Virus record (IMG/VR): IMGVR_UViG_3300025674_000014 | From: a virus | Lineage: Duplodnaviria > Caudoviricetes | Direction: 5' to 3' (one strand) | Length of the DNA: 64,000 nucleotides | In this document: one piece after another, positions 2,504 through 63,977 of the stretch | Layout: every line of letters begins with the position of its first letter | Numbering within the stretch: position 1 is the stretch's first letter | Translations under genes and position numbers: made by a program | The notes under the pieces: model-generated | Database searches by the model: none | What the model was told of the DNA's origin: nothing | The model's input: only the letters and a program-made list of their open reading frames with translations

Positions 2504-3130
2504 GTGGAAAAGAAATTCAATAAGATTTACGAATCTTACGTATCTAGATTTACCAGAGGTGGTTTTCTTACTGGAGATTTAGTTAAAGTAAGAGATAACT
2601 ACAAATCTACTGAAGGTTATAAACAATTAAGCCCAGAGTATCAGGCCAAGTTAGATGATCTTTTAGCTAGTGATCTTAACTTGCGTGTTTCTGGTATTGA
2701 GAACAAATACCCTTCTAACCAACCTGGTAACACAGATAACTCAAGCGGAGAGTTTTCTATCACTGTATCACAAGAAACAGCTCCTGGTAGGTATGATGGT
2801 TTTTATCAATTTCCTGATGACATCTTCGAACCAGTAGATGTATATCCTAACAGAATGCCAGTACCAGACAGTATGGTACGTCCTAACGGCACTAAAATTG
2901 ACCCAGATACATTAGAGTATGAAGATGAAGAATCTTATGTTGGGTCTAATCCTCTTAAGTCTCAGGTTGAAGCAGGTTATTTACCTGATGCTGAAAAACA
3001 ACCTGCTATGGGTGATGATAGAGAATTACATAATGTCAATGCTAAGACAGATCAGTTTGGTGCACCTTCTCATGATGCTCAAGCAATCGGAGGCGGTAAC
3101 ATGCCTGACACTAGCATTTACTTAAAGTAA
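2504..3130 (+). CDS. Hypothetical late protein, possibly virion-internal
   Basis: 208 aa ORF, late motif upstream, N-terminus MEKKFNKIYESY resembles a capsid-targeting leader. Confidence 0.65.
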   Translation: MEKKFNKIYESYVSRFTRGGFLTGDLVKVRDNYKSTEGYKQLSPEYQAKLDDLLASDLNLRVSGIENKYPSNQPGNTDNSSGEFSITVSQETAPGRYDGFYQFPDDIFEPVDVYPNRMPVPDSMVRPNGTKIDPDTLEYEDEESYVGSNPLKSQVEAGYLPDAEKQPAMGDDRELHNVNAKTDQFGAPSHDAQAIGGGNMPDTSIYLK

Positions 3131-4028
3131 TAAAGCATGCATATGCATTGATTTCTTGATCCATACAAAACGCTGATTTATAGATAAAGTCGTGGCAAGT
3201 AGTAAGCTGCGACTTTTTCTTATCTTCTTGAATGCATGGCAAGTCATCGATGTAATTAAACATCTCTTTAATCAATACTGGGTAATCATTATTAAACACA
3301 TGCTCATTCTTTATCGCAAGCTTTCTGCACTTAAGAACATGTCCATGCTCAATAAGCTTATACAAATCAGCGACAAGTTTGGATACGTTAGAGCTATCAT
3401 CAACTTCAATCTTACCATCGTTTGTAAGCTTTTGAATCGTATTGATGGTCTTACGAAGATCTGGAAAGTTATCCCTAACAATTTGTTTCAAGTCATCTTC
3501 ACTACATACGATATTTTCCTCATTCAATATATGAGCCATGCGTCTGGTTACATCCTCCACGTCATGGGTTATGTTAAATACCTGGCACCTGCTCTGTAAT
3601 GCTGGAATGATTCGATGCTTATAATTTGCAGTAAGAACAAATCGAGTAATTGCACTATACTCTTCCATTACATTACGCAATGCTCTCTGACCATCTTGAG
3701 TCAAACCATCACACTCATCTAAGATAATAACTTTGATAGGAAAGAGACTCTTTGTCTTAGCATAGTTCGTAACCTTACTACGGATAGTATCAATACCATT
3801 CTCATCTGATGCATTGATATATAGGTGATCACATTCAATTAGTTCATTAACAATAATCTTTGCAAGAGTAGTCTTACCAATACCTGGACTACCTACAAGA
3901 AGTACATTTGGAATCTCTCCACTCTCTTTAGCTTTATCAATCAATTGCCTAATTGAATTGCCTTCTTTAAGACAATAATCAGCAATCTGCTTCGGGCGAT
4001 ATTTTTCTACTAATAAGTTATCGAACAT
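3111..4028 (-). CDS. Sliding-clamp loader AAA+ subunit (gp44/RFC-small-like), copy A
   Basis: LVEKYRP RFC box II, Walker A GSPGIGKTT, INASDENG, Walker B IILDECD, SRC motif ALQSRC. Confidence 0.93.
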   Translation of the reverse strand: MFDNLLVEKYRPKQIADYCLKEGNSIRQLIDKAKESGEIPNVLLVGSPGIGKTTLAKIIVNELIECDHLYINASDENGIDTIRSKVTNYAKTKSLFPIKVIILDECDGLTQDGQRALRNVMEEYSAITRFVLTANYKHRIIPALQSRCQVFNITHDVEDVTRRMAHILNEENIVCSEDDLKQIVRDNFPDLRKTINTIQKLTNDGKIEVDDSSNVSKLVADLYKLIEHGHVLKCRKLAIKNEHVFNNDYPVLIKEMFNYIDDLPCIQEDKKKSQLTTCHDFIYKSAFCMDQEINAYACFITLSKC

Positions 4029-4034
4029 ACAACG

Positions 4035-4062
4035 ATGATATATACTATCTATCGCTTTTCAA
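4035..4062 (-). promoter_or_regulatory. Sigma70-type promoter TTGAAA-N16-TATCAT
   Basis: -35 at 4062-4057 and -10 at 4040-4035, 6 nt before the ATG at 4028. Confidence 0.6.
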
Positions 4063-4981
4063 ATAATTTTACCAACTCAAGACAGCAACAAAATGCATTT
4101 ATCTCTTTATCCAATACTTGTGTATTTTGATACAAATAATTAGAGATAGTTATTAGTAGATCTCTTTTGAATTTTTCTGGAAGGTCTTTCTCGTGCGTGT
4201 AATTAAAAAGAAGCTTAAGAAGAGAGTGATACTCACCGTTAAACTTCTCGTCATTATCCGTAAGAAATTGTCTAATGTTCTCAGAAACGCCAGATTCAAT
4301 TCGATCATAGAGGTCGTCAATAAACACCTGGTCTGTTTCCTCTTTGTCAATAGTGAGTCTTCCATTGACTGTATACTTTTGAATGTTGTTAACACATTTT
4401 CTAATATCAGGGTAATCCTTTTTTATCAACTTAATGAAGTAGTCCCTGTTCTCTTCAGTAAGTGTAATGTGTTCATAATTAAGAATAGCACTACATCGTT
4501 TAACGACTTCTAAAATAGGAGGAGTTAAGTCAAAGTTCTGACATCTGCTCTGCAATGCTGGAATGATCTTATGAATGTAATTACATGTTAGAATCCATCT
4601 AGTTGTTCTGCTATACTCTTCAATAGCATTACGTAGAGCTTTTTGAGACTCTTGCAAAAGACCATCACACTCATCTAAAATAATAACGTTAATCTTACCT
4701 TTAGATGGTCTTTCTTTTGCATATGATATAGCTTTCTTACGAATGGATTCTATATCGTTTTCATCTGATGCGTTTATATAAATGTAATCACATTTTATAA
4801 GATCTTTTACGATAATCTTTGCTAAAGAGGTTTTACCTATACCTGGGGGACCAGCAAAGAGAAGGTTTGGAATTTCTTCTTTTTCCTTAAATTGGTTAAA
4901 CACTCGATAATTGTCATCGGTTAAGATGATATCATCGAGTGTTTGTGGTCTATACTTTTCAACAAATAGACTATCGAACAT
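4049..4981 (-). CDS. Sliding-clamp loader AAA+ subunit (gp44/RFC-small-like), copy B
   Basis: Start reassigned to ATG 4981 (MFDSLFVEKYRP, parallel to copy A); GPPGIGKTS, IILDECD, ALQSRC. Confidence 0.93.
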   Translation of the reverse strand: MFDSLFVEKYRPQTLDDIILTDDNYRVFNQFKEKEEIPNLLFAGPPGIGKTSLAKIIVKDLIKCDYIYINASDENDIESIRKKAISYAKERPSKGKINVIILDECDGLLQESQKALRNAIEEYSRTTRWILTCNYIHKIIPALQSRCQNFDLTPPILEVVKRCSAILNYEHITLTEENRDYFIKLIKKDYPDIRKCVNNIQKYTVNGRLTIDKEETDQVFIDDLYDRIESGVSENIRQFLTDNDEKFNGEYHSLLKLLFNYTHEKDLPEKFKRDLLITISNYLYQNTQVLDKEINAFCCCLELVKLFEKR

Positions 4982-4985
4982 ATCA

Positions 4986-5489
4986 TTATTTACTATCAGA
5001 CGAGCCAAATCCATCAGCCCCTCTGTTAGTATCAGACACTTCGTCAGCCCATTCAATAATAGGTTGCAATAATCTATAGACAACTATTTGTGCACAACCT
5101 TTACCTTTTTCGATTACAGCGTCAGTATCGGAAAAGTTATACAACTTAACACCTAGATCACCCCTGTATTGATTATCAATAACACCAAGATGAGGTTGTA
5201 AGCCATGTTTGAAACCTAGACCAGATCGAGGTTCAATTCGAAACCAATAACCAGGAGTAATATCTGCAAGAGTAAGACCGACAGGCACAACTGCACTTCC
5301 ACGAGCTGGAATAGTCGTATCTTCTACAGCAAACAAATCATAACCAGAATCACCAGTCATACATTCTTCATTGTTTACTGTAGGTAGTTTTGCATCATCA
5401 TGCGTCTTCTTAAACTTAACAGTCAATGCTTGTTTATCTACATTAACCCAGTTTGTATTTGATTCATATACATCACACATATCGCTCAT
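4986..5489 (-). CDS. dut: Trimeric dUTPase
   Basis: GDSGYDL, PRSGLG, GVIDNQYRG and RGADGFGSS motifs. Confidence 0.95.
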   Translation of the reverse strand: MSDMCDVYESNTNWVNVDKQALTVKFKKTHDDAKLPTVNNEECMTGDSGYDLFAVEDTTIPARGSAVVPVGLTLADITPGYWFRIEPRSGLGFKHGLQPHLGVIDNQYRGDLGVKLYNFSDTDAVIEKGKGCAQIVVYRLLQPIIEWADEVSDTNRGADGFGSSDSK

Positions 5490-5524
5490 ACAATCATAAT
5501 ATATGTTGTACTATAAAAGTAAAC

Positions 5525-5532
5525 TATAAATA
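5525..5532 (+). promoter_or_regulatory. T4-type late promoter TATAAATA
   Basis: Exact motif 7 nt before ATG 5540. Confidence 0.8.
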
Positions 5533-5539
5533 TTTGGCA

Positions 5540-6016
5540 ATGGACGATATACCAAGTCATGATATAGGTGATTTAGTTGATCAGTTAAAGAATGCTGAAA
5601 AGTATCTTAAGAAACCAGAAAAGGCAGAAGAAGAGTTCAACTTAGATCCTGAAGAGCTTGAAAAGTTTATACTTAACAACGCTGGTAAGCTTGTAAAGAA
5701 ATCTATCGATATGGTAGATGAAGTAAAACAATATGTCGAAACTGCTCCAGAGAGTAGAGATGTATCTAGTTTATCTGAACTGATAAATGCTTCTTCTTCA
5801 GCTATAGAAACTCTTTCAAAAATATTAGTACAAAATAAGAAAGACAAAACTCAGAAAGAAGTTAAACAGATGGATATCGACGGCAAGAAGCAATTAATGC
5901 AAGGTGAGTTTAATGCAAAGGTTATGCTATCAAGAGATGATGTTATGAAAGAGTTATTTGCTAAAGTTGAAAGAGAAGAAAAAGATATTACACCGACACA
6001 GTCCCAAGAGTTGTAA
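5540..6016 (+). CDS. Probable terminase small subunit (gp16-like)
   Basis: Start reassigned to 5540; helical segment LVKKSIDMVDEVKQYVETAPESRDVSSLSELINASSSAIETLSKI matches the gp16 two-helix pattern; late promoter. Confidence 0.6.
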   Translation: MDDIPSHDIGDLVDQLKNAEKYLKKPEKAEEEFNLDPEELEKFILNNAGKLVKKSIDMVDEVKQYVETAPESRDVSSLSELINASSSAIETLSKILVQNKKDKTQKEVKQMDIDGKKQLMQGEFNAKVMLSRDDVMKELFAKVEREEKDITPTQSQEL

Positions 6017-10243: not shown

Positions 10244-10252
10244 TATTATTAT

Positions 10253-12163: not shown

Positions 12164-12169
12164 CTATAT

Positions 12170-12177
12170 TATTTATA
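12170..12177 (-). promoter_or_regulatory. T4-type late promoter TATAAATA
   Basis: Exact motif 6 nt before ATG 12163. Confidence 0.8.
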
Positions 12178-12184
12178 AGGGAAG

Positions 12185-12925: not shown

Positions 12926-12933
12926 AAACATAT

Positions 12934-13626: not shown

Positions 13627-13632
13627 TTAATC

Positions 13633-13641: not shown

Positions 13642-13646
13642 TACTT

Positions 13647-13925: not shown

Positions 13926-13933
13926 GTATATAT

Positions 13934-15271: not shown

Positions 15272-15841
15272 ATGGTCGGAATAAGTTCAATCATATCAGG
15301 GTTAGCCGCTCCGATATCAAATGTTATAACGAAATTTGTTACTCGTAAAGAGGATCAAATGCGTGTTCAGGCTGAAATAGAAAAGATTCAAAAAGATTTT
15401 GAAGCTAAAATCATAGAGAATCAAAATAACGTTCTACAAGCGCAAAAAGATATAGTATTAGCTGAAGTCCAAGGTCACTGGTTTCAACGTAATTGGAGAC
15501 CAGCTTTGATGTGGATAATCATATGTGTTATTGCTAACAATTATCTTATTGCTCCCTTAGTTAATCAAATTTCAACAGTATTTGGTGGTGAAAGTATATT
15601 TCCTGCGTTAGACCTACCGGATAAGTTGTTTAATTTAATGACAATTGGTCTAGGAGGCTATGTTGTTGGTAGAAGTGCTGAGAAAATTGTACCTCAATTA
15701 GCAGAAACAAAAGCTTTAGTAACTTCAGGAACGACTCCTGAACAACTAGAAGAAAAGAAAGTAAAGAAAGCTCAATTCAGAGAAGCTGTTGCAACAGCAA
15801 CAAGAAGACCTGAAACACCAAATATTGGCCCTAGATTCTAA
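15272..15841 (+). CDS. 3TM holin family protein
   Basis: LAEVQGHWFQRNWRPALMW motif, hydrophobic segments and LGGYVVGRSAEK; CTAAATA 5 nt upstream. Confidence 0.8.
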   Translation: MVGISSIISGLAAPISNVITKFVTRKEDQMRVQAEIEKIQKDFEAKIIENQNNVLQAQKDIVLAEVQGHWFQRNWRPALMWIIICVIANNYLIAPLVNQISTVFGGESIFPALDLPDKLFNLMTIGLGGYVVGRSAEKIVPQLAETKALVTSGTTPEQLEEKKVKKAQFREAVATATRRPETPNIGPRF

Positions 15842-16232
15842 ATAAAGCAGTAGAAGTACCTCTCTTAAAGATAGCTAGTGAAGCCCACTTATCTAGAGAG
15901 GTATTTTCATATAAAGAGACTTTAGGTCTTGGGTGTAAGAAATGAACCTGACTACCTTCAATTTCATAGTCACCTATAGCCGCACAGTATAGATGCTTAT
16001 AGCCTTCTGAATGACTCAAAGACATTTGCACATCTTTAAAGTTTTCATGAACTAATCTATAAATTGAAGGTAGATTTGAGGTTCCTGACTCACTGTAGAT
16101 CTTAAGTAGATCTGATTGAAAAGTTTGAGGTGATGCAAATTTTACATGTTTGGATGTTTTTGTTACCTTTTCGTAAGGACTATTATGAGTAGAAAAATAT
16201 TTTTCTAATAACATGTGATTATCTGCATCCAT
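15831..16232 (-). CDS. Hypothetical late protein
   Basis: GATAAATA 6 nt upstream; leader MDADNHMLLEKY. Confidence 0.55.
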   Translation of the reverse strand: MDADNHMLLEKYFSTHNSPYEKVTKTSKHVKFASPQTFQSDLLKIYSESGTSNLPSIYRLVHENFKDVQMSLSHSEGYKHLYCAAIGDYEIEGSQVHFLHPRPKVSLYENTSLDKWASLAIFKRGTSTALFRI

Positions 16233-16241
16233 ATTGTATAT

Positions 16242-16439
16242 TTATCCTAATAGTAAATTATCTTTATTACTTTTGTCACTATAAACTTTATCCCAACATT
16301 CACCGCATAGTTGACCACAACCTTCTACATAAAAGTTACGATAATCTATATGAGTATGTTCTGTATAAGGCGTTTCAGCTTCACAAAGTACGCATTTGTC
16401 CATCTTGACACCGTCTGTTTCTGTAATGATATCAGTCAT
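16242..16439 (-). CDS. Small CxxC...CxxC zinc-finger protein
   Basis: CVLC...GCGQLCGECW. Confidence 0.65.
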   Translation of the reverse strand: MTDIITETDGVKMDKCVLCEAETPYTEHTHIDYRNFYVEGCGQLCGECWDKVYSDKSNKDNLLLG

Positions 16440-45919: not shown

Positions 45920-46555
45920 TCAATCACTGATAAAAATAGTATTACAATGATTCCAGTGAACAATCTTAAAGAAGTTATTAATCCATTCTCCTCTTTCTGG
46001 ACCGTTCATAAGATAATAAGCATGTTCCCATACATCGCAACCTAGTATAGGTTTACCAGCATTACTCATAAGGGGATTATCTTGATTAGGAGTATGTACT
46101 ACTTCCAACCTATTATCTTTTTTAACCAACCATACCCACCCTGATCCAAACTGGGACTTGCCAGATTCAACGAACTCGTTCCTAAAGTTATTGAAGGAAC
46201 CGAAAGTGCTTTTAATTGCTTTACCGAGCTCGGATTTACCTTCAAATGGAGTCCCTCCTGGATGCATGTATTTCCAGAAGAGTGAGTGATTGTAGTAACC
46301 ACCAGCATTGTCTCTAACTTTATCATCGTATTTCTTAATATTCTTAATTAACTCAACAATAGGTGGTTTTGGTTTATTACCTAAAGCTTCATTTAATTTT
46401 TTGATGTAACCCTTATAATGAACATTATAATGAAAGTTCATCGTTTGTCTATTAATTACTGGTGCTAAGTCCTTTAATCCATAGGAAAGTTTTTCAGCAT
46501 AGTATTTTGCTGTATTAGCTTCTAATAATTGATATACTTTAGACTCGTAACTCAT
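45920..46555 (-). CDS. sod: Fe/Mn superoxide dismutase, Mn-type signature
   Basis: HYNVH, NAGGYYNHSLFW, FGSGWVWL, PNQDNP, DVWEHAYY. Confidence 0.95.
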   Translation of the reverse strand: MSYESKVYQLLEANTAKYYAEKLSYGLKDLAPVINRQTMNFHYNVHYKGYIKKLNEALGNKPKPPIVELIKNIKKYDDKVRDNAGGYYNHSLFWKYMHPGGTPFEGKSELGKAIKSTFGSFNNFRNEFVESGKSQFGSGWVWLVKKDNRLEVVHTPNQDNPLMSNAGKPILGCDVWEHAYYLMNGPERGEWINNFFKIVHWNHCNTIFISD

Positions 46556-47172
46556 TTCTTCTTACCACCCTTCATATTAGCACACCAATGGTACATCTTT
46601 CCTTTTTCACCACCGGCTTTTTTAGCTTTTGCTCTTAATGAAGTAACAGAGCCTTTACAACTAGCTCCTGATCTTTTTACTCTACCGGGTCTGCTTTTAC
46701 CTTTAACTTTACCATCGGCGTAATTTTCATGAACACTACCTTCTACTTTTTTAAGCTTAGAGTAATATTTTGGATCTTCAGCTAGGTGTTGTAAAGCAAT
46801 AGTTTTAGCTGCTTTATCACTTGTAGTGTGTTCCTTTTCAACTTTTATACCCATGGCTAATTCTTTAGGATCAGCTTTAATATGTGGTCTTGGTTTAAGT
46901 TGTTCGTTTATTTTTTTAAGCTGAATTTCAGTCTTATCTAAAACATCACCCTTTTTATATGTAGGACCATCATTTAAGACTTTATAACGTATAAATTTAC
47001 CAATTGTGTTATTAGGTTCTTTTAATTTAAAGACTTTTAATACTTTACCTTTACTACCGTAATGATCACATTCTTTGTTTGTGTTTAAACAAAGATCACC
47101 AGGACGAAGTTCATTAGCGTCTAAATCAGTCTTTTCTAAGATTTTATTAATCTTATCATTAAAGAGGCTCAT
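46552..47172 (-). CDS. Basic late protein with a DUF5661-like motif
   Basis: ELAMGIKVEKEHT...IALQHLAEDPKYYSKL; Lys/Gly-rich C-terminus. Confidence 0.65.
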   Translation of the reverse strand: MSLFNDKINKILEKTDLDANELRPGDLCLNTNKECDHYGSKGKVLKVFKLKEPNNTIGKFIRYKVLNDGPTYKKGDVLDKTEIQLKKINEQLKPRPHIKADPKELAMGIKVEKEHTTSDKAAKTIALQHLAEDPKYYSKLKKVEGSVHENYADGKVKGKSRPGRVKRSGASCKGSVTSLRAKAKKAGGEKGKMYHWCANMKGGKKK

Positions 47173-47177
47173 GCATA

Positions 47178-47185
47178 TATTTATG
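47178..47185 (-). promoter_or_regulatory. Late promoter CATAAATA
   Basis: 5 nt before ATG 47172; the downstream sod is coupled by an ATGA overlap. Confidence 0.65.
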
Positions 47186-53561: not shown

Positions 53562-53582
53562 ATATTAATTTAAGTTACTAAA

Positions 53583-54332
53583 TTAAACTTTCAATGCTTT
53601 ATCCCAAAGTAGCAAATGTAACCTAGGACTAAAGTTAAAGTGATACTCTTTAGCAAGCTCAGCAACATCTGCTGCAACTCTAATATGTTCTTCACGACTA
53701 CCAGCACAAGGCATCAACCAAACACGACCAGTTGGTATATCAAACTTATCAACATACTCAGTCATAATTTCTTCCATATCACGGTGACTTTGTACTACAA
53801 ACTTAAACCCTGAATTATGCATTGTATGCCAATCGAGCACCTCTTCAATATAACGCTTGCCTTTAGGATCGCCATTTGACTTTAGTTTAGGTGAAGTAGT
53901 AAATGTAGCTTGGAACTCATCTATCCATCGATCTGAAGGATATATAGTTGCATTAGTTTCAAAATCGATACGAGGTACAAAACCCCACTCTTGTTTCAAG
54001 TAATCGATGAACTTAAGAAGTTTAGCTTGCTGGATAAGAGGTTCGCCACCAGTTAGTTTAAGAATAGCACCATTAAATAAATGATCTTTATAACCATTAT
54101 CTTCTAGCATACACCTAATATGGTAAAATGACATCTTATTCTTAATACTCCATGAAATATAACTATCACAACCATATGGTGCATCTTCAGACTTAAACCC
54201 AATACACGTTAGGTTACACATCGACATTCTCATAAACACCGATGGCATGCCTACATACTCACCTTCACCTTCTATAGTATAGAAAATTTTATCATCACTA
54301 AGAAATATAGTCTCATCCTTAAGTTCAATCAT
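53583..54332 (-). CDS. queE: 7-carboxy-7-deazaguanine synthase
   Basis: YTIEGEG...PSVFMRMSMCNLTC-x11-CDS, LTGGEPL, ETNAT, SPRLHLLLW. Confidence 0.9.
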   Translation of the reverse strand: MIELKDETIFLSDDKIFYTIEGEGEYVGMPSVFMRMSMCNLTCIGFKSEDAPYGCDSYISWSIKNKMSFYHIRCMLEDNGYKDHLFNGAILKLTGGEPLIQQAKLLKFIDYLKQEWGFVPRIDFETNATIYPSDRWIDEFQATFTTSPKLKSNGDPKGKRYIEEVLDWHTMHNSGFKFVVQSHRDMEEIMTEYVDKFDIPTGRVWLMPCAGSREEHIRVAADVAELAKEYHFNFSPRLHLLLWDKALKV

Positions 54333-54338
54333 ATTATT

Positions 54339-54366
54339 ATTATAGTATAGACAACTAACTCTTCAA
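54339..54366 (-). promoter_or_regulatory. Sigma70-type promoter TTGAAG-N16-TATAAT
   Basis: -10 ends 6 nt before the queE ATG; overlaps the divergent phoH late promoter region. Confidence 0.65.
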
Positions 54367-54382
54367 GCATAAATACTTGTAT

Positions 54383-55123
54383 ATGGGAAGAAAAAACTCG
54401 CGGTTAGCCGCAATTTTCGAACCGGAATCATTTAATACAAATGATTATGAACAACAAAATTGGGAACTAAACTTTAACATTAAGTCGAAGTTTAAATTTT
54501 CTGAAAAGCATCAAAGGTTTATACAAACCTTAATAGATGAAAAGACGAAAATGGTATTTGCAGATGGGTTTGCAGGTACAGCTAAAACATATTTGTCAGT
54601 TTATGGAGCATTGACATTATTAGAAGCGAGAAAGGTAGAGCAAATTATTTACCTGCGAAGTGTAGTTGAATCAGCTACGCAAAAGATTGGCCATTTGCCA
54701 GGTGAATTAGATCAAAAATTCCAACCTTATTCCTTACCATTAATAGACAAACTTGATGAGTTAGTTTCTAAGACCACTTCAGATAAATTAGTTAAACAAG
54801 AGTATATCAAATGTCTCCCTGTTAATTTCACAAGAGGTTTAACATTTCATAACTCCGTTGTTATAATTGATGAAGCACAAAATCTCACAAGGCAAGAGCT
54901 TGTTACTTTATTAACAAGATGCGGTGAAGAAACAAAGTATGTTATTATTGGTGATACTAACCAAAGTGACATTAACGGTAAATCAGGGTTTAAACCTATC
55001 TTACAGGCATTTGATACCGATAATAGTGTAGTTAACGGTATTCATACATTTAAGTTTGAAAAATCTGAAATTGTAAGAAGCAAGTTACTTAAACACATTG
55101 TTCAGGTATTGGAATCTGTTTGA
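54383..55123 (+). CDS. phoH: PhoH-family ATPase
   Basis: GFAGTAKTYL, IGHLPG, RGLTF, IIDEAQNL, LTRCG, GDTNQSD, IVRS; CATAAATA 7 nt before ATG 54383. Confidence 0.93.
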   Translation: MGRKNSRLAAIFEPESFNTNDYEQQNWELNFNIKSKFKFSEKHQRFIQTLIDEKTKMVFADGFAGTAKTYLSVYGALTLLEARKVEQIIYLRSVVESATQKIGHLPGELDQKFQPYSLPLIDKLDELVSKTTSDKLVKQEYIKCLPVNFTRGLTFHNSVVIIDEAQNLTRQELVTLLTRCGEETKYVIIGDTNQSDINGKSGFKPILQAFDTDNSVVNGIHTFKFEKSEIVRSKLLKHIVQVLESV

Positions 55124-55287
55124 TTCTTTTCCATCTCAAGTAACTCTTTAAGAGCCTCTTCAGGCGATATTGTTTTTATATCAGCCTGAAGAGGTATTTT
55201 TTCGTCTGGAGAAGGCTTTGATATCTCTGCCATTTTAGCAAAAACATCTTGCTGTAATTTATTAATTGTTGGATCTCTTTCTATCAT
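55102..55287 (-). CDS. Hypothetical protein
   Basis: 61 aa ORF overlapping the queD stop. Confidence 0.45.
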   Translation of the reverse strand: MIERDPTINKLQQDVFAKMAEISKPSPDEKIPLQADIKTISPEEALKELLEMEKNQTDSNT

Positions 55288-55967
55288 CTCATACTATCAC
55301 CACTCTTGGTAGACCAAGAAGTACCACCAAACATATCACCTAAACCTTGTGATACTTTATTTCCAACAGCTGCTGGAATAGAACCATCTGGGTTAATTTT
55401 CAACCCTTCTTTAGTATACTTAGTTTCATCTTTGATTGCTGGTGTATTTTCAGGTGTAATAGGTTGGAATTCATCTTTTTTAATTTCTTCTTTACTTTCT
55501 TCTTCCTTAAAGGTCATTTTCTGTACATGCTTATTAGTATATGTAGCACTATTGCTCTCATGTTCCCAAACTTCAACCTTTTCTACATCACACCTACCTT
55601 CAGTCATTGCTGATACATAGATACTTGCAATATCAAAACACTTCTTAGCAAACATTTCAATACCAACTCCATCATCAATACGAAGATCAATAACACCTTT
55701 ACGATTTAAATCATTAAAGTCATCAAGGAAAGGATCGTGCTTAGAAATAATAGTAGTATGATCGAAGTGTTGTTGTAGTTTTTCTTTTAGCCCTTTAAGG
55801 CCACCAAAATCTACAACCCAGTTATTTTCATCTAGTTCATTACAACTAAACCAAAATTTAGCAGTTAACCTATAACCGTGAAGAAATCTACAATGTGACT
55901 TAGCTTGAGGTTGACGAAACGCACAGCTACCAAGTTCAATTACTTTAGTACTTTCAAAATTAGCCAT
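55284..55967 (-). CDS. queD: 6-carboxy-tetrahydropterin synthase with a C-terminal extension
   Basis: HCRFLHGY, VVDFGGLK, FDHT, VEVWEHESNSA; TTGAAA-N16-TAGTAT ends 5 nt upstream. Confidence 0.88.
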   Translation of the reverse strand: MANFESTKVIELGSCAFRQPQAKSHCRFLHGYRLTAKFWFSCNELDENNWVVDFGGLKGLKEKLQQHFDHTTIISKHDPFLDDFNDLNRKGVIDLRIDDGVGIEMFAKKCFDIASIYVSAMTEGRCDVEKVEVWEHESNSATYTNKHVQKMTFKEEESKEEIKKDEFQPITPENTPAIKDETKYTKEGLKINPDGSIPAAVGNKVSQGLGDMFGGTSWSTKSGDSMR

Positions 55968-55996
55968 ACCTTATACTAAGATATGTTCCGTTTCTT

Positions 55997-56302
55997 TCAA
56001 CTCTTTTTCTTTTTAAACGGTCTAGGACACTTAGTTCCTTTAACATGGGTATGACCACATCTACCGCAATAAGTAGCTTTTTTAGCCTCTAATAAAGCAT
56101 CTTTACTAATATATTGTGAGGCTATTTCATCCATTTTAGATTTACCAGCTTGGTTAAGAGCTATAGCTACTGCTTGTTTCTGAGCTTTATTTTTAGAAGA
56201 AGGTTTACTAGTACCTATTTTACCTTTTTTCTTATAGGATCCCATAAGCTCACTAATGTTATCACCTATAATCTTGTCTGTTTTACCTTTCTTAAGCGGC
56301 AT
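55997..56302 (-). CDS. Small Lys-rich protein
   Basis: MPLKKGK...NISEL...QKQAVAIAL; C-terminal CGRCGH...C. Confidence 0.65.
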
Positions 56303-56741
56303 TTTTTAATACTTTCTTATATAATGTAGTTAAATCTTTATCCGATAGACCACTTTGTTTTAGATATACTTCAATATCTTCAATATCGTTAGTATTCTTT
56401 ATTTGTTCCATAACTTTATTATCTAATTGTTTAGATAATTTTTTAGCAATAAACTTCTTAAACATTTTTACAGCTCCTGGTTTATTAGGTGTTATTACTG
56501 GTTTCTTTACACTAAAAATACCTGGCATTGAACCACCTGGCATTAAAACTTTTAGCAAAGGAGGTATACCACCGACCATTGGTCCACCACAAGCCTCGTT
56601 TGTAAGTTCATGTAAAACAAACCCTTCATAACTTTCACTCTCTTCAAAGCCCTGATTAAGAGTTGGATCTACTTTGAACCTAATATACCTTAACCCTTTG
56701 CTCTTTAAGCACTCGGTTAATATACTGTCAAAGTCTTTCAT
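56292..56741 (-). CDS. Hypothetical late protein
   Basis: TTAAATA 7 nt upstream; leader [10 protein letters not shown]. Confidence 0.6.
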
Positions 56742-56751
56742 ACATTAGTAT

Positions 56752-57819
56752 TTAATCAGATTTGTAATTGATTACGTCAAGTAGGGTTGTATAAAATGGT
56801 TTCTTACTGTTACCATGATAACAAGGTTCACCTTCATGACCGTGATTCCAGTTATCGAACCAAAATAGATTATAACCATGAATTTGAGATATAATACTAT
56901 AATAAGGTTCCTCAGTAAACGGAACTAAATCATGTTCATCAGTAAACCTGTTAAATATTTTCATATATAAAGGTAGTATAACATTATCTAGTTCTTCAAA
57001 TTTACCTCCAAAGAAAGTACCTACTGTCCAGGCAGGGTATTCCTGATTAACATCAGGTGCATTTACACAAGTTTTTATATTGAAAATCTTTTTGTTTGGA
57101 TTATCATTACCCCACCTTCTATTACCTACTTCCCAATCAAATAGTTCTTTAAATATTAAACTTGTTTTTACACCGAAATCTTCCCAATCAGCTTCTGATA
57201 ATCTATCGTTTTGTTGATCTTGGGTGATAAAAAACCAATCTTTATCTTCAAATATACGTTTTATACCGTCAGTAATTTTTTCGTTAAAAATATTATTTTT
57301 ATTTTCAGGCCAAAAATGTGAATCAGGGTATTGTTCGTCAAGTTGGTGTGGGTATACATATTCTGCACCACCTAATGATAAAGGAATTTTACACCATTCA
57401 GATACACCAGCATCAATCCAAAAAACCCTATCACAACCCCATGGGTTATCTTTTGCCATACTACACCATTTTAACTTCCAATGGCAAAGTAATTCATTTC
57501 TTGGTGCATAAATCATTTTACGTTTATTACCTTCATGATCTACATCGTGCCAAATAAATTTGTTTTTAGTTTCTAAAATTTCATATGATCTTGGCCATTC
57601 AAATAAATCTAAACCAATAACTTGAAAATCTTTCCAAAAAGGTTTTAACCATTCGGTTATTTGATCAACCATATGAGGCCAGCAATATAATTGCATTGGC
57701 ATATTAAGCTTAGATAAATTTTTTAAGGAACCTACATATAAAGCCTCGTCATTATCCTTACCACCCATTACCCAATCGGATCTACCATTGTAAACACATG
57801 TAACTAAAACCGGTTTCAT
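56752..57819 (-). CDS. HtrL/WlaTC-like glycan-modifying protein
   Basis: LVTCVY, K...C.MAK.NP, VFWIDAG, GTFFGG, TEE motifs. Confidence 0.65.
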   Translation of the reverse strand: MKPVLVTCVYNGRSDWVMGGKDNDEALYVGSLKNLSKLNMPMQLYCWPHMVDQITEWLKPFWKDFQVIGLDLFEWPRSYEILETKNKFIWHDVDHEGNKRKMIYAPRNELLCHWKLKWCSMAKDNPWGCDRVFWIDAGVSEWCKIPLSLGGAEYVYPHQLDEQYPDSHFWPENKNNIFNEKITDGIKRIFEDKDWFFITQDQQNDRLSEADWEDFGVKTSLIFKELFDWEVGNRRWGNDNPNKKIFNIKTCVNAPDVNQEYPAWTVGTFFGGKFEELDNVILPLYMKIFNRFTDEHDLVPFTEEPYYSIISQIHGYNLFWFDNWNHGHEGEPCYHGNSKKPFYTTLLDVINYKSD

Positions 57820-58400
57820 ATCATTTCGTATTTTAAAAACTCAAAATCCTCTTTATAATAATTGTTTAAAAGATCTAATGTTTCTCTTTTTATCTCACTA
57901 ACTAACTCAGATGTATTTATACTACTCTTATTCTCATGAGGTAAACTTGGAGAGAAATTGTTTGAAGTTGCTAGTAACTCAAAATCTTCCTTTAAATTTT
58001 CAAATCTTAATATCTGACTATAAACTATATTGTTATTAAAATATCTCTTTTGTGGTAAATTATGGTCTGTTATAGCTAAAGGAATTCTGGTAACAAAATT
58101 ATGAAATTTATCTGGTGTAAATTCACCCTCTCTATATATAAACTCAGATATCATTTTTGTATAAGGGTTTCTTACTATGGTAAATTTTTTACTGTTTTTG
58201 TACAATTCTGGGTAATGTTGTTCAATTAAATCTGGAGTAAAATGCTGAGGAGCAAATATTATATTGTTATAACGTTCTTCAGTATAGGTAAAACATTCAT
58301 CTCTATTTTGTTTATCTATTCCAAACTTCTTTTCAATTGAAGAACCACCGGTTTTAGGTATATGTACAAATAGTAAGTTGTAATCTAAAAGGAATGGCAT
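57816..58400 (-). CDS. Sulfotransferase family 2 protein
   Basis: FVHIPKTGGSSIE (5'-PSB), FTIVRNPY (3'-PB), RFENL, YYKEDFEFLKY; TTAAATA 6 nt upstream. Confidence 0.88.
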   Translation of the reverse strand: MPFLLDYNLLFVHIPKTGGSSIEKKFGIDKQNRDECFTYTEERYNNIIFAPQHFTPDLIEQHYPELYKNSKKFTIVRNPYTKMISEFIYREGEFTPDKFHNFVTRIPLAITDHNLPQKRYFNNNIVYSQILRFENLKEDFELLATSNNFSPSLPHENKSSINTSELVSEIKRETLDLLNNYYKEDFEFLKYEMI

Positions 58401-58417
58401 TAAGTTTATTTAAACAG

Positions 58418-58445
58418 TTGAACCTAAAAGTAAATATCCTATTAT
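58418..58445 (+). promoter_or_regulatory. Sigma70-type promoter TTGAAC-N16-TATTAT
   Basis: -10 ends 6 nt before the folE ATG 58452. Confidence 0.65.
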
Positions 58446-58451
58446 TTTAGT

Positions 58452-59108
58452 ATGACTGACGAACAGAGAGTAAAAGAATTTGTACTACCGACGGCTAATA
58501 GTTCGGTAGCATTGACAGATGAACAGCAAAGCATTGTTATTGAAAATGCTGCTAAAGCTTATGAAGCATTCCTAGATGCACTTGGTTTTGATTGGCGTAA
58601 AGACCCTAATAGTGATAATACACCGCATCGTGTAGCTAAGTCTTTCGTTAAAGATCTTATTGCAGGTTGTTATAATGCACCTCCAAAAGTTACTTCGTTT
58701 CCATCTGATGGTTACGATGGTATAGTTGCTCAGACTAATATTCCCGTTAAAAGTCTCTGCAGTCATCATCATCTTGCGTTCACCGGTCGAGCGCATGTTG
58801 CATACATACCTTCACTAGAAGGGCGTGTTATTGGTCTGAGTAAACTAAACCGTATTGTCGAATATTATGCTCGTCGTCCTCAAATTCAGGAAGGTATGAC
58901 AATGCAAATTCATAAAGCTATTGATAAGGTTTGTGAATTGAATAAAGGTGTTGCTGTAGTTATTAAAGCTACCCATACTTGTGCATGTCTTAGGGGTGTT
59001 AAGCATGATGGTTGTTCGATGGTTACTTCTAAACTATCAAAAGACTTTATGGATGATGTTAAGACTCGTAAAGAGTTTTATGACTTTATCCGTATGGCTG
59101 AGTCTTGA
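58452..59108 (+). CDS. folE: GTP cyclohydrolase I
   Basis: TPHRVAK, SLCSHHHLAF, GLSKLNRIV, ARRPQIQE, HTCACLRGV. Confidence 0.96.
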   Translation: MTDEQRVKEFVLPTANSSVALTDEQQSIVIENAAKAYEAFLDALGFDWRKDPNSDNTPHRVAKSFVKDLIAGCYNAPPKVTSFPSDGYDGIVAQTNIPVKSLCSHHHLAFTGRAHVAYIPSLEGRVIGLSKLNRIVEYYARRPQIQEGMTMQIHKAIDKVCELNKGVAVVIKATHTCACLRGVKHDGCSMVTSKLSKDFMDDVKTRKEFYDFIRMAES

Positions 59109-59137
59109 TTCAAAAATTTAGTTGAATAAATAATTCC

Positions 59138-59695: not shown

Positions 59696-60129
59696 ACTTC
59701 TTCCTTATCTACATCGATAAGTTTATCAATTTTTGATACAAAATCTTTTCCAACAAGTACTGGGTACTCATTTTCTGATCTATCAGCTATAGAAAAAGGA
59801 ACGTCTTTATATTTTTTACCGTCAAATACAATATCGAATAAAACCACAGGTCTTTCTTCTTTATTACCTGAACCAATATGTATAACAACGGTATCTACTA
59901 CTTGCTTTTTAAGTTTTTTGTTGTTAACGGTACCTATAATAATATTATCACCGCGTTTACTTAATATATCACCGTGTAATACGTTATAAGCTCCATTACC
60001 TGAATCTACTTTAGCTTCAACATCACCTACTGAATCAATAGTAATAGGTTCAACTAAGCCGATAACATCATTATCGGCTATTTCGTTTAAAAAGTAGTTT
60101 CTATATATTGTATTAAACCCTTTATTCAT
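59692..60129 (-). CDS. Retropepsin-like protease (RimK-associated/'Zn protease' PF05618-like)
   Basis: EAKVDSGN, ERPVV, FSIADRS, YPVLVGKDF; probable start MNKGF at 60129. Confidence 0.75.
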   Translation of the reverse strand: MNKGFNTIYRNYFLNEIADNDVIGLVEPITIDSVGDVEAKVDSGNGAYNVLHGDILSKRGDNIIIGTVNNKKLKKQVVDTVVIHIGSGNKEERPVVLFDIVFDGKKYKDVPFSIADRSENEYPVLVGKDFVSKIDKLIDVDKEEV

Positions 60130-60307
60130 CGTTTTTTCGTGACTCAAGAATATTTTTTCTTTCGTCTCTTGCTAGTTTAACTAAATCTGCTAAAGCTTTA
60201 CGTGCTCTAGTAGAAGCAGACTTATTATTCTTTTCAGTAAATAAGTCAATATTTTTAACATAAGATGCTACTAAGTCCAAAATTTCTTGTTTTTTAGATT
60301 CTGACAT
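60122..60307 (-). CDS. Hc1-type histone H1-like small basic protein
   Basis: FTEKNNKSASTRARKALADLVKLARDERK matches the Hc1 family core. Confidence 0.7.
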   Translation of the reverse strand: MSESKKQEILDLVASYVKNIDLFTEKNNKSASTRARKALADLVKLARDERKNILESRKNDE

Positions 60308-60380
60308 AATAATAATTATGGTTATGTTAATATTTATCTACGCAAGTTGATTAATATGGTATTTATTAAATAATATGTAC

Positions 60381-61136
60381 ATGAAGAAACTTATTTTTTC
60401 TGTATTATTGGCTGCCGTTACTACTGCTGGTAACGCGCAGGTTAGTGTTGATGCAGGCTATACCTCTGATTTTACAATCGCTGGTACAGCAAGAGCAAAG
60501 GACACAGCTGTCATTGGAATCACGGGGGCAAAGGCTTTAGGAAAAGGATTTACTCTTTACGGGTTTAATTACTTCTTGCCAACAAATGACGGACGTTCTA
60601 AATCTTATACTGATCATCCAGGTTCGGGTCATCAGCATGTAGATGGTATTAAGAATGCTCTTGAAACTAGTAGTCAAAACCATTTTGGTGTTGGACTTGC
60701 TTATGACGTTAATTCACTCGGTGATTTTTCTTTCACCGCTGACGTTCAAGCTGTTTATCACTTGGTAAACGGTCCTCTTCAGGATTCTTTCCAGTATGGA
60801 ATTGGTGCAACATTTGATAGCCTTCCTTTAATTAGTAAGGTTGCAAGTGTTTCTGTTTACTACATGGAAGATATTGATCTTGAAATGGATGGTTTTCAGA
60901 TTGGTTTGAGTAGAGTCTTTGAAAACGTGTTAGTTGATAACGTTAATTTGACTCCTAAGGCCGGTGTCTATTTGTTTGATAGTTTTGATGCTTATTATGC
61001 TTCATTGAGAGCTGATTATACTAAGTATGCTATCAGACCTTATGTTCAGGTAAGTTATTTTGATAACGACTTGACTGGAGATCTTGCACTTGACAATGAT
61101 GTTCAGTATACGGTCGGTCTTAACTATTCCTTCTAA
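60381..61136 (+). CDS. Outer-membrane beta-barrel (TorF/Gcw_chp-like porin)
   Basis: Signal peptide MKKLIFSVLLAAVTTAGNA, alternating beta-strands, C-terminal YTVGLNYSF BAM signal; TTAAATA 8 nt upstream. Confidence 0.75.
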   Translation: MKKLIFSVLLAAVTTAGNAQVSVDAGYTSDFTIAGTARAKDTAVIGITGAKALGKGFTLYGFNYFLPTNDGRSKSYTDHPGSGHQHVDGIKNALETSSQNHFGVGLAYDVNSLGDFSFTADVQAVYHLVNGPLQDSFQYGIGATFDSLPLISKVASVSVYYMEDIDLEMDGFQIGLSRVFENVLVDNVNLTPKAGVYLFDSFDAYYASLRADYTKYAIRPYVQVSYFDNDLTGDLALDNDVQYTVGLNYSF

Positions 61137-61156
61137 ATTATTATCAATAAAAGCAC

Positions 61157-61182
61157 AAAGCCCGCTTCGGCGGGCTTTTTTT
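61157..61182 (+). terminator. Rho-independent terminator with a UUCG tetraloop
   Basis: AAAGCCCGC-TTCG-GCGGGCTTT then TTTT; the upstream A-run suggests bidirectional use. Confidence 0.92.
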
Positions 61183-62590
61183 ATGCATCTTCAAGCCAGT
61201 TAGCAGAAGCAAAGTATAACCCTGATCCTGAACCGCTCTTAAGAGGTGTAACAAAAATATGATATTCATCGGAATTACCTTGAATATCATGACCAAACGT
61301 AACAAAACTTTCTTTTAATGTAGCTAAATCAGCAGCGTTATCTTTAGATACAAAATACGTTGCAAGAACTTGACCACCACTTATGTAAGTAAATCCACTA
61401 CCACCTACACCGTAAGCTACAGCAGAATCTTGAATAGATTTTAATGTAAATGTACCGGTATATGAAGGGTTTCTAATTATTCTAATTCTAGTGTCAATAT
61501 TAGAATCAGTATTAAGAACACTAAAATCAGAAGGCGTAACAACAGCGTTTAATCTTGTAGATGATAAAGCTAACATCATGATAGAACATTCTGTTTTAAC
61601 TGGAATAGAAATTTCTACATTACTTGTTTCTAATGCAGTATCAATTGAACGTAGTGAACCTTGTTTACTAACACCGCCTTCAGAATTAACATTAGCACAA
61701 ATTTGTAATAATTGACCAGGTGTCGAACCGTTTTGTCTTATTTCAGCTCTAATAGGTAAGTTAGGATTTTGAATGAAAACAGAACTAATAGCATTAGCAT
61801 TAGTAACTTGATGACAATAGTAAGTTAACCCATCAACAACAAAACCATATCTAATTCTACCTACACCTAACCATTCAAAATCGATAGTAAATATCTGAGA
61901 TTTAGTAAAATCTAATGTTATACCGCTCGCTCCATTACCATCCATTGTATCGATGTTCCAACTACTTTGAGGTACGGTAATATCAGCAGCGTTACCATTA
62001 TAATTAGATACATTTACAGAAACAACATTATTACTATTTTTAAAATAAACACCATTATACTGATCGTAATCACCAGACGTGTTAGATTTGTATGCACCAT
62101 AAAGCATATCTATATCATTACCACCACTTAATATCCCTGTAAAAAGAAACTGTTGTGATTTGCCTGGTTGATACCCAAAACTTTGAAATGTTTGTCTTAT
62201 AGCATAATCACCGCTGTTTACGGTATACATTTTAGTACCGGAATCTCCAGAACTAAATTCACAAGCTCCTCCACCATTACCAAAATCATCGTATACAAAA
62301 TCTCTCTTACTGTATAACTGTTTTGCTGAAAATATTGCAGTAGGGTTACTAACTCTTAAACGACCAAAAGCATCTATAGCACCACCATCACCAAATGGTA
62401 CGGGGTTGGTTTGTGATTGACCTATATCGTATGTTAAAACTGCTGTTTTAGGAAAAACCTGCGTTTTACTACTTAAATCATTTTCCCAATAAGCAGTAAC
62501 TGGAGGAAAATTAGTATCATTAATTATTTCAACAAACTTTTGATATTCATAGGTTTGAAACCCACCGTTTAATACTGTTTTGAGTGACAT
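61181..62590 (-). CDS. Probable virion structural beta-sandwich protein
   Basis: DAFGRLRVSNP, YQPGKSQ and FEWLGVG motifs recurrent in large myovirus structural proteins. Confidence 0.6.
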   Translation of the reverse strand: MSLKTVLNGGFQTYEYQKFVEIINDTNFPPVTAYWENDLSSKTQVFPKTAVLTYDIGQSQTNPVPFGDGGAIDAFGRLRVSNPTAIFSAKQLYSKRDFVYDDFGNGGGACEFSSGDSGTKMYTVNSGDYAIRQTFQSFGYQPGKSQQFLFTGILSGGNDIDMLYGAYKSNTSGDYDQYNGVYFKNSNNVVSVNVSNYNGNAADITVPQSSWNIDTMDGNGASGITLDFTKSQIFTIDFEWLGVGRIRYGFVVDGLTYYCHQVTNANAISSVFIQNPNLPIRAEIRQNGSTPGQLLQICANVNSEGGVSKQGSLRSIDTALETSNVEISIPVKTECSIMMLALSSTRLNAVVTPSDFSVLNTDSNIDTRIRIIRNPSYTGTFTLKSIQDSAVAYGVGGSGFTYISGGQVLATYFVSKDNAADLATLKESFVTFGHDIQGNSDEYHIFVTPLKSGSGSGLYFASANWLEDA

Positions 62591-62593
62591 ATA

Positions 62594-62851
62594 CTATTTC
62601 TTTTTCTTCCAATTAACTCTTTTAGAGCTTTTCTTTTGATACATTTTACCCTTTATACTTTTACATGCACTTTTAGTAGGTCTGCATGCAGGGTAGCTAC
62701 CACCTGACTTTTTAGATTTACGTCCACAAGGACCACCAGTTTTACAATTTACCCATCCAGAGAATTTCTTACCGGTTTTAGGGTCCTTACCACCTCTTTT
62801 AAACCATTGATGTAAATTATCTGAAGCTTCGTAAAACTGTTTAAAAGTCAT
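62594..62851 (-). CDS. Small Lys/Gly/Cys-rich basic protein
   Basis: LHQWFK...WVNCKTGGPCGRK...YPACRP; leader MTFKQFYEA. Confidence 0.65.
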   Translation of the reverse strand: MTFKQFYEASDNLHQWFKRGGKDPKTGKKFSGWVNCKTGGPCGRKSKKSGGSYPACRPTKSACKSIKGKMYQKKSSKRVNWKKKK

Positions 62852-62949
62852 TTTCTCTTCTTACCTACACGCTTTTTGGTAACGGTTACTGTCTTGCGTG
62901 TACGAATTCCGTTTTTTGTACTCTCTTTTACTATTTGTCTTTTTCCCAT
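62848..62949 (-). CDS. 33 aa Lys/Arg-rich micro-protein (not in the ORF track)
   Basis: Hand translation MGKRQIVKESTKNGIRTRKTVTVTKKRVGKKRK; GTAAATA 5 nt upstream; TGA overlaps the next ATG. Confidence 0.6.
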   Translation of the reverse strand: MGKRQIVKESTKNGIRTRKTVTVTKKRVGKKRK

Positions 62950-62960
62950 ATTATTATTTA

Positions 62961-63125
62961 CTATTTTTTATTTTTCTTCCAAATTTTACCTTTACGGCAT
63001 CTAACTATAGCGCCTGATTTATATGCAGATGTTTTCTTACCATATACTTTATCAGCACGTGATTTACAACGATCTTCTGATAGTAAGTTAAGTATATCTT
63101 CTATTTTTTTGTTAAAGTTATTCAT
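62961..63125 (-). CDS. 54 aa basic micro-protein (not in the ORF track)
   Basis: Hand translation MNNFNKKIEDILNLLSEDRCKSRADKVYGKKTSAYKSGAIVRCRKGKIWKKNKK; TAATG overlap with the upstream gene. Confidence 0.65.
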   Translation of the reverse strand: MNNFNKKIEDILNLLSEDRCKSRADKVYGKKTSAYKSGAIVRCRKGKIWKKNKK

Positions 63126-63427
63126 TACCAATTTTGACATGAAAGTTTCTTAGCTGTACCGGGTTTTGCAGAAGAACATTTGTGTCTTGCTCTAAAGCTT
63201 TTACGTCTTTTAGGATTACTCTTCTTAATGCGACTATTAGGGTCTCCGTAATGGACCCTTTTGTATCCCTTACCGGAAGGGTTCTTTACACACTTCATAT
63301 ACTTCTTACTTTTAAGGTAAGAGCTAGCTTGTTTAGTAGCTTTAGTGCAACGGCTACCTTTTTTCTCCATAATCTTAACCAATTCAAAGTCTTCGGTAAG
63401 AAAATCACACAATGCATCAAAATCCAT
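63125..63427 (-). CDS. Small basic Cys-containing protein
   Basis: HYGDPNSRIKKSNPKRRKSFRARHKC...SCQNW; leader MDFDALCDFLTE. Confidence 0.7.
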   Translation of the reverse strand: MDFDALCDFLTEDFELVKIMEKKGSRCTKATKQASSYLKSKKYMKCVKNPSGKGYKRVHYGDPNSRIKKSNPKRRKSFRARHKCSSAKPGTAKKLSCQNW

Positions 63428-63432
63428 ACAAT

Positions 63433-63444
63433 TATTTATAAATA
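63433..63444. promoter_or_regulatory. Palindromic bidirectional late promoter TATTTATAAATA
   Basis: Two overlapping TATAAATA boxes, each 5 nt from a divergent ATG (63427 and 63450). Confidence 0.8.
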
Positions 63445-63449
63445 TTAGT

Positions 63450-63977
63450 ATGAATAAAGACGAAAAGAGTTTACAAGAACTCTATGAAGCTACACTTTCA
63501 CCTCTTAACGGTGTAGGGTTAGGTCCTCAAGCTGAAGATTCAGCAGGTGGATTAGGAAGCCCTACTATGACCAAAATAGATGTTCAAGATGTTGAAACAC
63601 CTGAAGATGAAGAAAGGGAACAGATTGACGATCACGAGGTTGATATGGCTAAATCAGAGCTTTATAAATTAGCTGAATACGCCCCTAAGTTACTTGATCT
63701 AATTAAAAATTATGATGAATTAGAAGGATGGGTTCAAGCTAAACTTACCAAAGCAAGTGATTATGTTTCTGATATCTACCACTACCTTAAGTATGAAGAA
63801 GAAGCTAATGTACATAGTCATGAAGTTGATGAAGTGCCTCCTGCCCCTATGGGTGGTTGTGGTGGTCCTGCAGCAGTTGAAGTCGATATTGATGAACAAC
63901 CACCAGGTGAAATGGGTGATGAAGAGAAAAAGGGTGTAAACGACGAAGTTATTAAAATGTTAATGAGTCGTTTCTAA
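63450..63977 (+). CDS. Acidic hypothetical late protein
   Basis: Start 63450 (MNKDEKSLQELYEA); helical core DMAKSELYK...LEGWVQAKLTKASDYV. Confidence 0.65.
   Translation: MNKDEKSLQELYEATLSPLNGVGLGPQAEDSAGGLGSPTMTKIDVQDVETPEDEEREQIDDHEVDMAKSELYKLAEYAPKLLDLIKNYDELEGWVQAKLTKASDYVSDIYHYLKYEEEANVHSHEVDEVPPAPMGGCGGPAAVEVDIDEQPPGEMGDEEKKGVNDEVIKMLMSRF

Follow-up and report, generated by a model that had tools for sequence, protein, structure and literature searches.

Glutamate-ending leaders on late proteins of an uncultured T4-superfamily phage resemble head-targeting sequences

A 64,000-nucleotide stretch of IMG/VR virus record IMGVR_UViG_3300025674_000014, here called the window, encodes eleven proteins that begin with a short leader ending in glutamate (Glu). 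We suggest that most of them are probably precursors carrying a T4-type head-targeting leader, which would be removed by a gp21-type prohead protease, and that the mature proteins would be packaged and injected with the phage DNA. By analogy with T4, the leader would bind the protein to the scaffolding core as the prohead forms, the protease would cleave after the Glu, and the mature protein would remain in the head with the DNA and leave with it at infection. What we observe directly is the motif: where it lies, how it goes with late genes, that it behaves as an add-on and that it is conserved. The leaders exceed chance expectation. As cargo we predict an Fe/Mn superoxide dismutase (SOD), a retropepsin-like protease, a basic protein built of modules like a polyprotein, and small, very basic proteins that probably bind DNA, joined just past the window end by a HIGH-motif nucleotidyltransferase and two further proteins.

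The capsid-targeting sequence of T4 was described for the internal proteins IPI, IPII and IPIII (Mullaney and Black 1996, reviewed in PMC9026906, PMC9958956). Ten N-terminal residues of IPIII are enough to bring a foreign protein into the prohead core. Of these, 4 and 7 serve targeting and 8 and 10 serve cleavage, and gp21 then removes the leader (PMC9026906, PMC3012670, PMC5694885). Residues 4 and 7 are aromatic or hydrophobic, and the leader may be a general route by which T4-like phages load varied proteins (PMC9026906). For comparison we read the T4 leaders of IPI, IPII, IPIII, gp24, Alt, gp21, gp22, gp67 and gp68 from sequence.

All eleven window leaders listed in a preliminary description of this DNA translate as written there, at the right coordinates. 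They are 8-17 residues long, and counting back from the Glu (P1), all eleven have Leu, Ile or Phe at P3. Two of the genes, at 2504 (+) and 45905 (-), start with GTG and have a TAAATA box 5-6 nt upstream; the start at 60129 is an ATG within a longer TTG-started frame, and that at 63125 is the ATG of a 54-aa open reading frame (ORF) on the minus strand, 62961-63125. Hydrophobic residues fall in the T4 spacing (P7, P4 and P3) in two leaders, 56741 and 63427, and at 56741 they occupy residues 4, 7 and 8 exactly as in T4. Most of the other leaders have an aromatic residue at position 3-5, in a register shifted relative to the T4 targeting residues. The mature parts are basic in eight of the eleven, with isoelectric points (pI) of 9.2-10.5.

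The window set is like IPI-III in having short N-terminal leaders (10-19 residues in T4) that end hydrophobic-x-Glu on late, mostly small basic proteins, in joining similar leaders to unrelated bodies, in the clustering of the genes, and in that one leader form of this lineage's protease family is a near-match to that of T4. It differs from IPI-III in that its leaders are of several sequence types, there are far more carrier genes per genome, and the predicted cargo includes folded metabolic enzymes.

The phage itself is a distant, uncultured member of the T4 superfamily. The window has a G+C content of about 31% and carries nearly all its genes on the minus strand, among which PHROG profiles identify the T4-type baseplate wedge proteins gp6 and gp25, two clamp-loader paralogues, a hub protein, portal gp20, sheath stabiliser gp3, UvsW helicase and a GroES-like co-chaperonin. 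Matches of PHROGs to the flagged leader proteins are almost absent. The portal, which shares about 30% identity with its counterparts in Aeh1, cyanophages and pelagiphage HTVC008M, is the sole link to T4-like phages in a protein search of our phage collection, where there is no close cultured phage; neither megablast with 20 kb of sequence nor tblastn with one fibre-like protein gave a match in that collection. Relatives are numerous in IMG/VR. They include a complete genome (G002; 209 kb, terminal repeats) with a portal 61% identical to the window's. A contig (L211) that is 100% identical to the window adds 6.1 kb past its end.

In the complete relative, a Peptidase_S77 (gp21), gp22 and gp23 are encoded side by side, and we read the cleavage sites of each in 56-76 clade members. 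In the clade, the first eight residues of gp21 form a peptide that ends L-[IL]-V-E, with Thr or Ala next. The gp22 proteins have I-L-x-E at residues 9-10 followed by Ala, and in gp23 an [IL]-x-E site with Ala or Gly after it lies near residue 61. T4 gp21 sheds nine residues ending L-I-E, and T4 gp23 is cut after Glu65 (PMC9958956, PMC9026906). Because gp21, gp22 and gp23 of the clade all keep hydrophobic-x-Glu sites, comparison of these sequences indicates that a gp21-type enzyme and its specificity are conserved in this lineage.

The preliminary description also held that the leader-bearing proteins are late proteins, and the promoters agree. We took as the mark of a late gene a TAAATA box before the start codon, which is a sequence match and not a transcript. 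The box resembles the core of the T4 late promoter and ends exactly 5 nt before the start codon, GTG starts included, in 64 genes of the window and G002 (examples at 2490-2503, 16238-16243 and 47178-47183). Seven of the eleven flagged genes have a late box of their own; the remaining four (46555, 60129, 62851 and 63125) lie downstream in operons headed by one. Were transcription to begin as in T4, the late mRNAs would be nearly leaderless at the 5' end, without room for a Shine-Dalgarno sequence. Between the divergent leader genes 63427 (-) and 63450 (+), a near-palindromic pair of late boxes occupies the 22-nt gap at 63428-63449, which looks like a two-way late promoter.

Further evidence comes from whole protein families. 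The leader is an add-on in three of them, those of the SOD, the protease and the small basic protein: it ends hydrophobic-x-Glu just ahead of the conserved body and is absent from cellular or other-lineage homologues. That enzymes are among the carriers, as had been proposed, is borne out by Pfam for both the SOD and the protease. The SOD matches PF00081 (3e-18) and PF02777 (4e-34) from residue 18 onwards, and its metal ligands H42, H90, D174 and H178 are invariant in 35 sequences. In a search of 5.8 billion proteins, all of its approximately 45 closest homologs carry a leader of 12-15 aa that ends [LIV][LIV]E some nine residues ahead of the fold; bacterial SODs lack it and either start directly at the fold or have a signal peptide. 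Leader-bearing SODs occur in dozens of metagenomic protein clusters, and both homologs whose contigs we read lie in phage contexts. An AlphaFold2 model places the leader in a separate helix (residues 3-12) with a predicted local distance difference test score (pLDDT) of 56, the remainder scoring above 90. We came across no head-targeted phage SOD in the literature searched. A second group of phage SODs, to which one of the two homologs just mentioned belongs, is represented at L198 6001-6717, in another T4-like lineage, by a gene between a helicase and T4 gp13; its product is extended N-terminally by 38 residues that hold three hydrophobic-x-Glu sites.

The protease matches PF05618 at 33.6 bits (E = 4e-8; cut-off 27) and has the D-S-G-N active-site motif, which is kept in its homologs. 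Nearly all of the 120 homologs listed carry a leader in one of two forms, either 15-16 aa ending [LIV]-x-E, as in the window, or 9 aa. The 9-aa form is a near-match to the capsid-targeting sequence of T4 IPII and IPIII and to T4 gp61.1. The T4 gene 61.1 (L114 18966-19130, -) encodes 54 aa annotated as hypothetical, with an N-terminus nearly identical to the IPII/III targeting sequence and Glu at residue 10; gp61.1 is not among the T4 head proteins listed in the reviews consulted. Directly upstream of the window protease and overlapping its start, a 61-aa protein (60122-60307, -) matches the chlamydial histone H1-like Hc1 family (PF07432, E = 1.9e-13, above cut-off), and may be a phage DNA-condensing protein.

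Among homologs of the very basic protein at 62594-62851 we count 48 different leaders, all ending hydrophobic-x-E directly ahead of the conserved core. Our pattern finds no such leader in 69 of the 120 homologs listed, and the leaderless ones whose N-termini we read begin either in basic residues or in a fused DUF5872. The neighbouring protein at 62961-63125 has its own DUF5872 match, beginning at residue 18, and orthologs in two relatives (G002 and L068) retain a Glu-ending leader. Homologs of 63125-63427 (60-65% identity), which directly follow gp23 in other clade members, have a quite different leader that also ends L-x-E. Between two of these small leader proteins lies a 33-codon ORF (62848-62949, -), also called by the source record's gene caller, that is about 40% Lys or Arg and has a TAAATA box 5 nt before its ATG; it has a protamine-like look and no leader.

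The protein at 46552-47172 is modular. Its leader is followed by a first module ending I-N-E at residue 90, a DUF5661 module (match at residues 104-144) ending V-H-E at residue 149, and a basic C-terminal module. In one close relative, DUF5661 is missing and the first module is fused to the basic module exactly at V-N-E, and in a distant phage the basic module stands alone behind its own leader, which ends F-F-E, again joined at the Glu. We regard these module borders as the best indirect evidence for real processing sites.

For five further proteins (45905, 16232, 63427, 63450 and 2504), the Glu site is kept in orthologs as leader or body varies. At 44796-45905 the GTG start lies 6 nt after the late box, and both Glu sites are retained in three orthologs whose bodies are only 31-48% identical; the ESM Atlas model has a pLDDT of 0.40, and neither this protein nor that at 2504-3130 had a usable match in the ESM Atlas. 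Orthologs of 15831-16232 (70-73% identity) retain L-L-E or I-V-E, and relatives of 63450-63977 (76-99% identity) retain L-Y-E followed by Ala. The GTG and the TAAATA box 5 nt upstream of 2504 recur in eight relatives, and the ortholog at the same place in G002 retains a Glu in L-I-E at residue 10 behind a different leader sequence.

Similar leaders also recur on dissimilar proteins, as had been claimed in calling the leader shared. Six pairs of N-terminal 14-mers score at least 25, against 0.7 in shuffles, and apart from two clamp-loader paralogues the top pairs are flagged proteins. The leader of 63125 resembles that of 47172, that of 16232 resembles that of 45905 (score 38), and that of 2504 resembles that of the protease at 60129; the mature parts of the proteins with like leaders have no similarity.

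The motif is concentrated near the N-termini of predicted proteins. We defined a loose motif as hydrophobic-x-Glu with a second hydrophobic residue beside it and applied it to 400 ORFs of the window and G002. At residues 8-13 we see 57 motif sites, compared with about 24 expected from the rate at residues 19-40. The motif occurs in 28 of 104 late-box genes (27%) but in only 30 of the 296 others (10%), an odds ratio of 3.3 (p = 7.6e-5); the early-versus-late test that the preliminary description set as a possible refutation therefore does not refute the proposal. Leader genes also occur in runs in G002, one of them seven genes long (P = 0.0005). Composition bias at the translation start was considered as a cause and ruled out because the AT content of codons 2-9 is equal in late-box genes and others. 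A position-specific scoring matrix built from the eleven leaders gives nine matches in G002 at a score of at least 4, compared with 2.5 expected, a modest excess from a matrix that is noisy with 11 training peptides.

Several points weigh against the proposal that these proteins are packaged and injected. The phage is uncultured, and we infer core binding, cleavage, virion residence and injection by analogy and from sequence; the gp21-type protease is seen in relatives only (G002 and the 56-76 clade members). Three of the flagged proteins are acidic, unlike classic internal proteins, and some could be core or scaffold parts that are degraded and not injected. At 56292-56741 the Glu gives way to Asn or Asp in the closest relatives (70-79% identity). 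Ungapped BLOSUM likeness to the T4 leader is about twice that expected and genome-wide is not significant. The motif is also imprecise: in T4, the same loose motif occurs in 34 of 255 ORFs, of which only 7-10 encode known head proteins or gp21 substrates, with clamp loader gp44, ligase and thymidylate synthase among the false matches, and about half of the T4 N-terminal motif excess is unexplained by known substrates. Within the window, both clamp-loader paralogues match by chance through a conserved E-K-Y-R-P box.

Some of these points fit the possibility that the leaders are real prohead-protease propeptides on core or scaffold accessories like T4 gp67 and gp68, with no delivery to the host. 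Many of the carriers would then be degraded and expelled in maturation or be active only inside the prohead or head. T4 gp22, gp67 and gp68 also begin with such sites and get degraded (PMC9958956), the 46552-47172 protein has several internal sites, and the three acidic candidates are like gp67 and gp68. The SOD, the protease and the small basic proteins, however, have one conserved site ahead of an intact conserved body, which is the pattern of T4 IPI-III and Alt, proteins that are kept and injected. We regard this explanation as unlikely, if the most serious of the alternatives.

Chance would account for the leaders if most were common amphipathic-helix starts in an AT-rich genome rich in Lys, Asn, Phe, Ile and Glu, with one or two processed at most and the rest ordinary N-termini. 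The T4 benchmark and its half-explained excess lend this some weight, as do the window clamp loaders, a QueD that also matches the motif, and an internal background rate of 6-8%. Because in that benchmark the motif is right for only about one match in four, the motif alone cannot call single proteins, and comparative support is needed. Chance nonetheless leaves unexplained the add-on leaders with an invariant Glu across whole families, the module borders at sites, the runs of leader genes, the link to late genes and the shared leaders on unrelated bodies, and we consider it improbable. It is more improbable still that the leaders serve another end, such as membrane routing or processing by one of two further protease-like genes within the window (the trypsin-like 23814-25175 or the retropepsin-like enzyme), as they are too short and too charged for signal peptides, their site fits the specificity at the clade gp21, gp22 and gp23 sites, and the retropepsin-like protease itself bears a leader.

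The interpretation in the preliminary description is supported in part. Its analogy with T4 proves better founded than that description had grounds to assume: a gp21-type protease in the lineage, a specificity kept at the canonical substrates, leaders that behave as add-ons and module borders at the sites agree with it. The loss of the Glu at 56292-56741 and the poor prediction from the motif alone do not. Because BLOSUM likeness is unconvincing genome-wide, we claim no homology of the leader sequences to those of T4, the 9-aa form of the protease family excepted. The flagged proteins, with the strength of support for each leader, are collected in Table 1.

Table 1. Leader-bearing proteins of the window and of the adjoining sequence, and one structural gene from the same region
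Product	Coordinates	Strand	Leader or other evidence	Support
Acidic protein beside gp25, 208 aa	2504-3130	+	Codons 1-10 (2504-2533), ends I-Y-E	Fair
Basic protein, 133 aa	15831-16232	-	Codons 1-10 (16203-16232), ends L-L-E; own late box	Fair
Basic, predicted disordered protein, 369 aa	44796-45905	-	45855-45905, L-F-E at 10 and L-S-E at 17	Fair to good
Fe/Mn superoxide dismutase, 211 aa	45920-46555	-	Codons 1-12 (46520-46555), ends L-L-E, then Ala	Strong
Modular basic protein, 206 aa	46552-47172	-	Ends I-L-E at 13 (47134-47172)	Strong
Basic protein, 149 aa	56292-56741	-	N-terminal helix ends L-T-E at residue 10 (56712-56741); late box	Weak
Retropepsin-like (PF05618, RimB-like) aspartic protease, 145 aa	59692-60129	-	Codons 1-16 (60082-60129), ends L-N-E	Strong
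Virion structural protein, 469 aa	61181-62590	-	phrog_1645 'virion structural protein', E = 7e-70	
Very basic Cys-containing protein, 85 aa, pI 10.5	62594-62851	-	Codons 1-8 (62828-62851), ends F-Y-E, then Ala	Strong
Very basic DUF5872-like protein, 54 aa	62961-63125	-	Codons 1-17 (63075-63125), ends L-S-E	Good
Very basic protein, 100 aa	63125-63427	-	Codons 1-12 (63392-63427), ends L-T-E; own late box	Good
Acidic protein, 175 aa	63450-63977	+	Codons 1-13 (63450-63488), ends L-Y-E, then Ala; late box	Fair
Three leader proteins past the window end			HIGH-motif nucleotidyltransferase; 438-aa protein with two sites; 167-aa protein	

At 56292-56741, the weakest case, Glu lies at or beside the site in about two thirds of 59 homologs, and the N-terminal helix continues straight into the conserved core. 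The virion structural gene at 61181-62590 is the last of an operon with three small leader proteins and has no leader itself. The three leader proteins past the window end lie in the first 6 kb of the same genome beyond it.

Other features of the region deserve mention. The leader genes 56741 and 60129 are interspersed among genes of a 7-deazaguanine path at 53583-59108 (QueE-like radical SAM, PTPS/QueD and GTP cyclohydrolase I), together with PhoH and a sulfotransferase. Amid the leader genes and on the opposite strand, 60375-61136 (+) encodes 253 aa with a typical signal peptide and the look of an outer-membrane beta-barrel, and is kept in two relatives (L067 and L068). The window has tandem gp44-like clamp-loader paralogues, 3111-4028 (-) and 4049-4981 (-), where T4 has gp44 and the unrelated gp62; G002 has a single clamp loader.

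Parts of this picture are already known, namely the mechanism, from the T4 capsid-targeting sequence, and enzyme cargo, from the precedent of Alt. T4 Alt is an ADP-ribosyltransferase with a 10-residue leader ending F-D-E, which the head retains and which enters the host together with the DNA (PMC9958956); the candidate enzymes here are instead an SOD, an aspartic protease and a nucleotidyltransferase. The ejection proteins of phiKZ, 201phi2-1 and SPN3US are likewise cut after Glu by a related prohead protease, and N-terminal propeptides load their inner-head proteins (PMC5694885, PMC7411985). The motif in those giant phages is Ala/Ser/Gly-x-Glu and most of their propeptides exceed 100 residues, whereas the window sites have Leu, Ile, Val or Phe at P3 and short leaders as in T4. 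Giant eukaryotic viruses also package SODs, such as the Megavirus Cu,Zn-SOD and the SOD-like proteins of poxviruses. What they share with the window SOD is that an SOD is, or in the window's case would be, carried inside a virus particle; they are of the Cu,Zn and not the Fe/Mn family, belong to other viruses and lack a cleavable T4-type leader. New here are the lineage, how many and how varied the leaders are, the shuffling of modules at sites and the cargo, above all the widespread leader-bearing SOD.

A more far-reaching picture, which we offer tentatively and would not yet bet on, is that the lineage, comprising abundant freshwater T4-like phages, loads an enzyme kit into the head via interchangeable leaders. 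The Fe/Mn SOD, the aspartic protease, the HIGH-motif nucleotidyltransferase and a further large protein would be delivered ready-made and act before phage genes are read. The SOD might blunt a host oxidative defence at entry or shield the packed genome from superoxide in sunlit water, and the prohead protease might cut polyproteins into small basic peptides, with modules shuffled at the sites.

If the leaders work as they do in T4, a short cleavable head-loading tag would be an old and general trait of the T4 superfamily beyond the T-even coliphages, reaching lineages whose portal shares only some 30% identity with those of T4-like phages. It would also provide a sequence rule for finding the injected proteins of uncultured phages, namely a late-expressed protein with a hydrophobic-x-Glu leader that behaves as an add-on. 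Counter-defence factors are especially to be looked for among injected proteins, and the natural range of leaders and cargo seen here could broaden the T4 protein-packaging toolbox.

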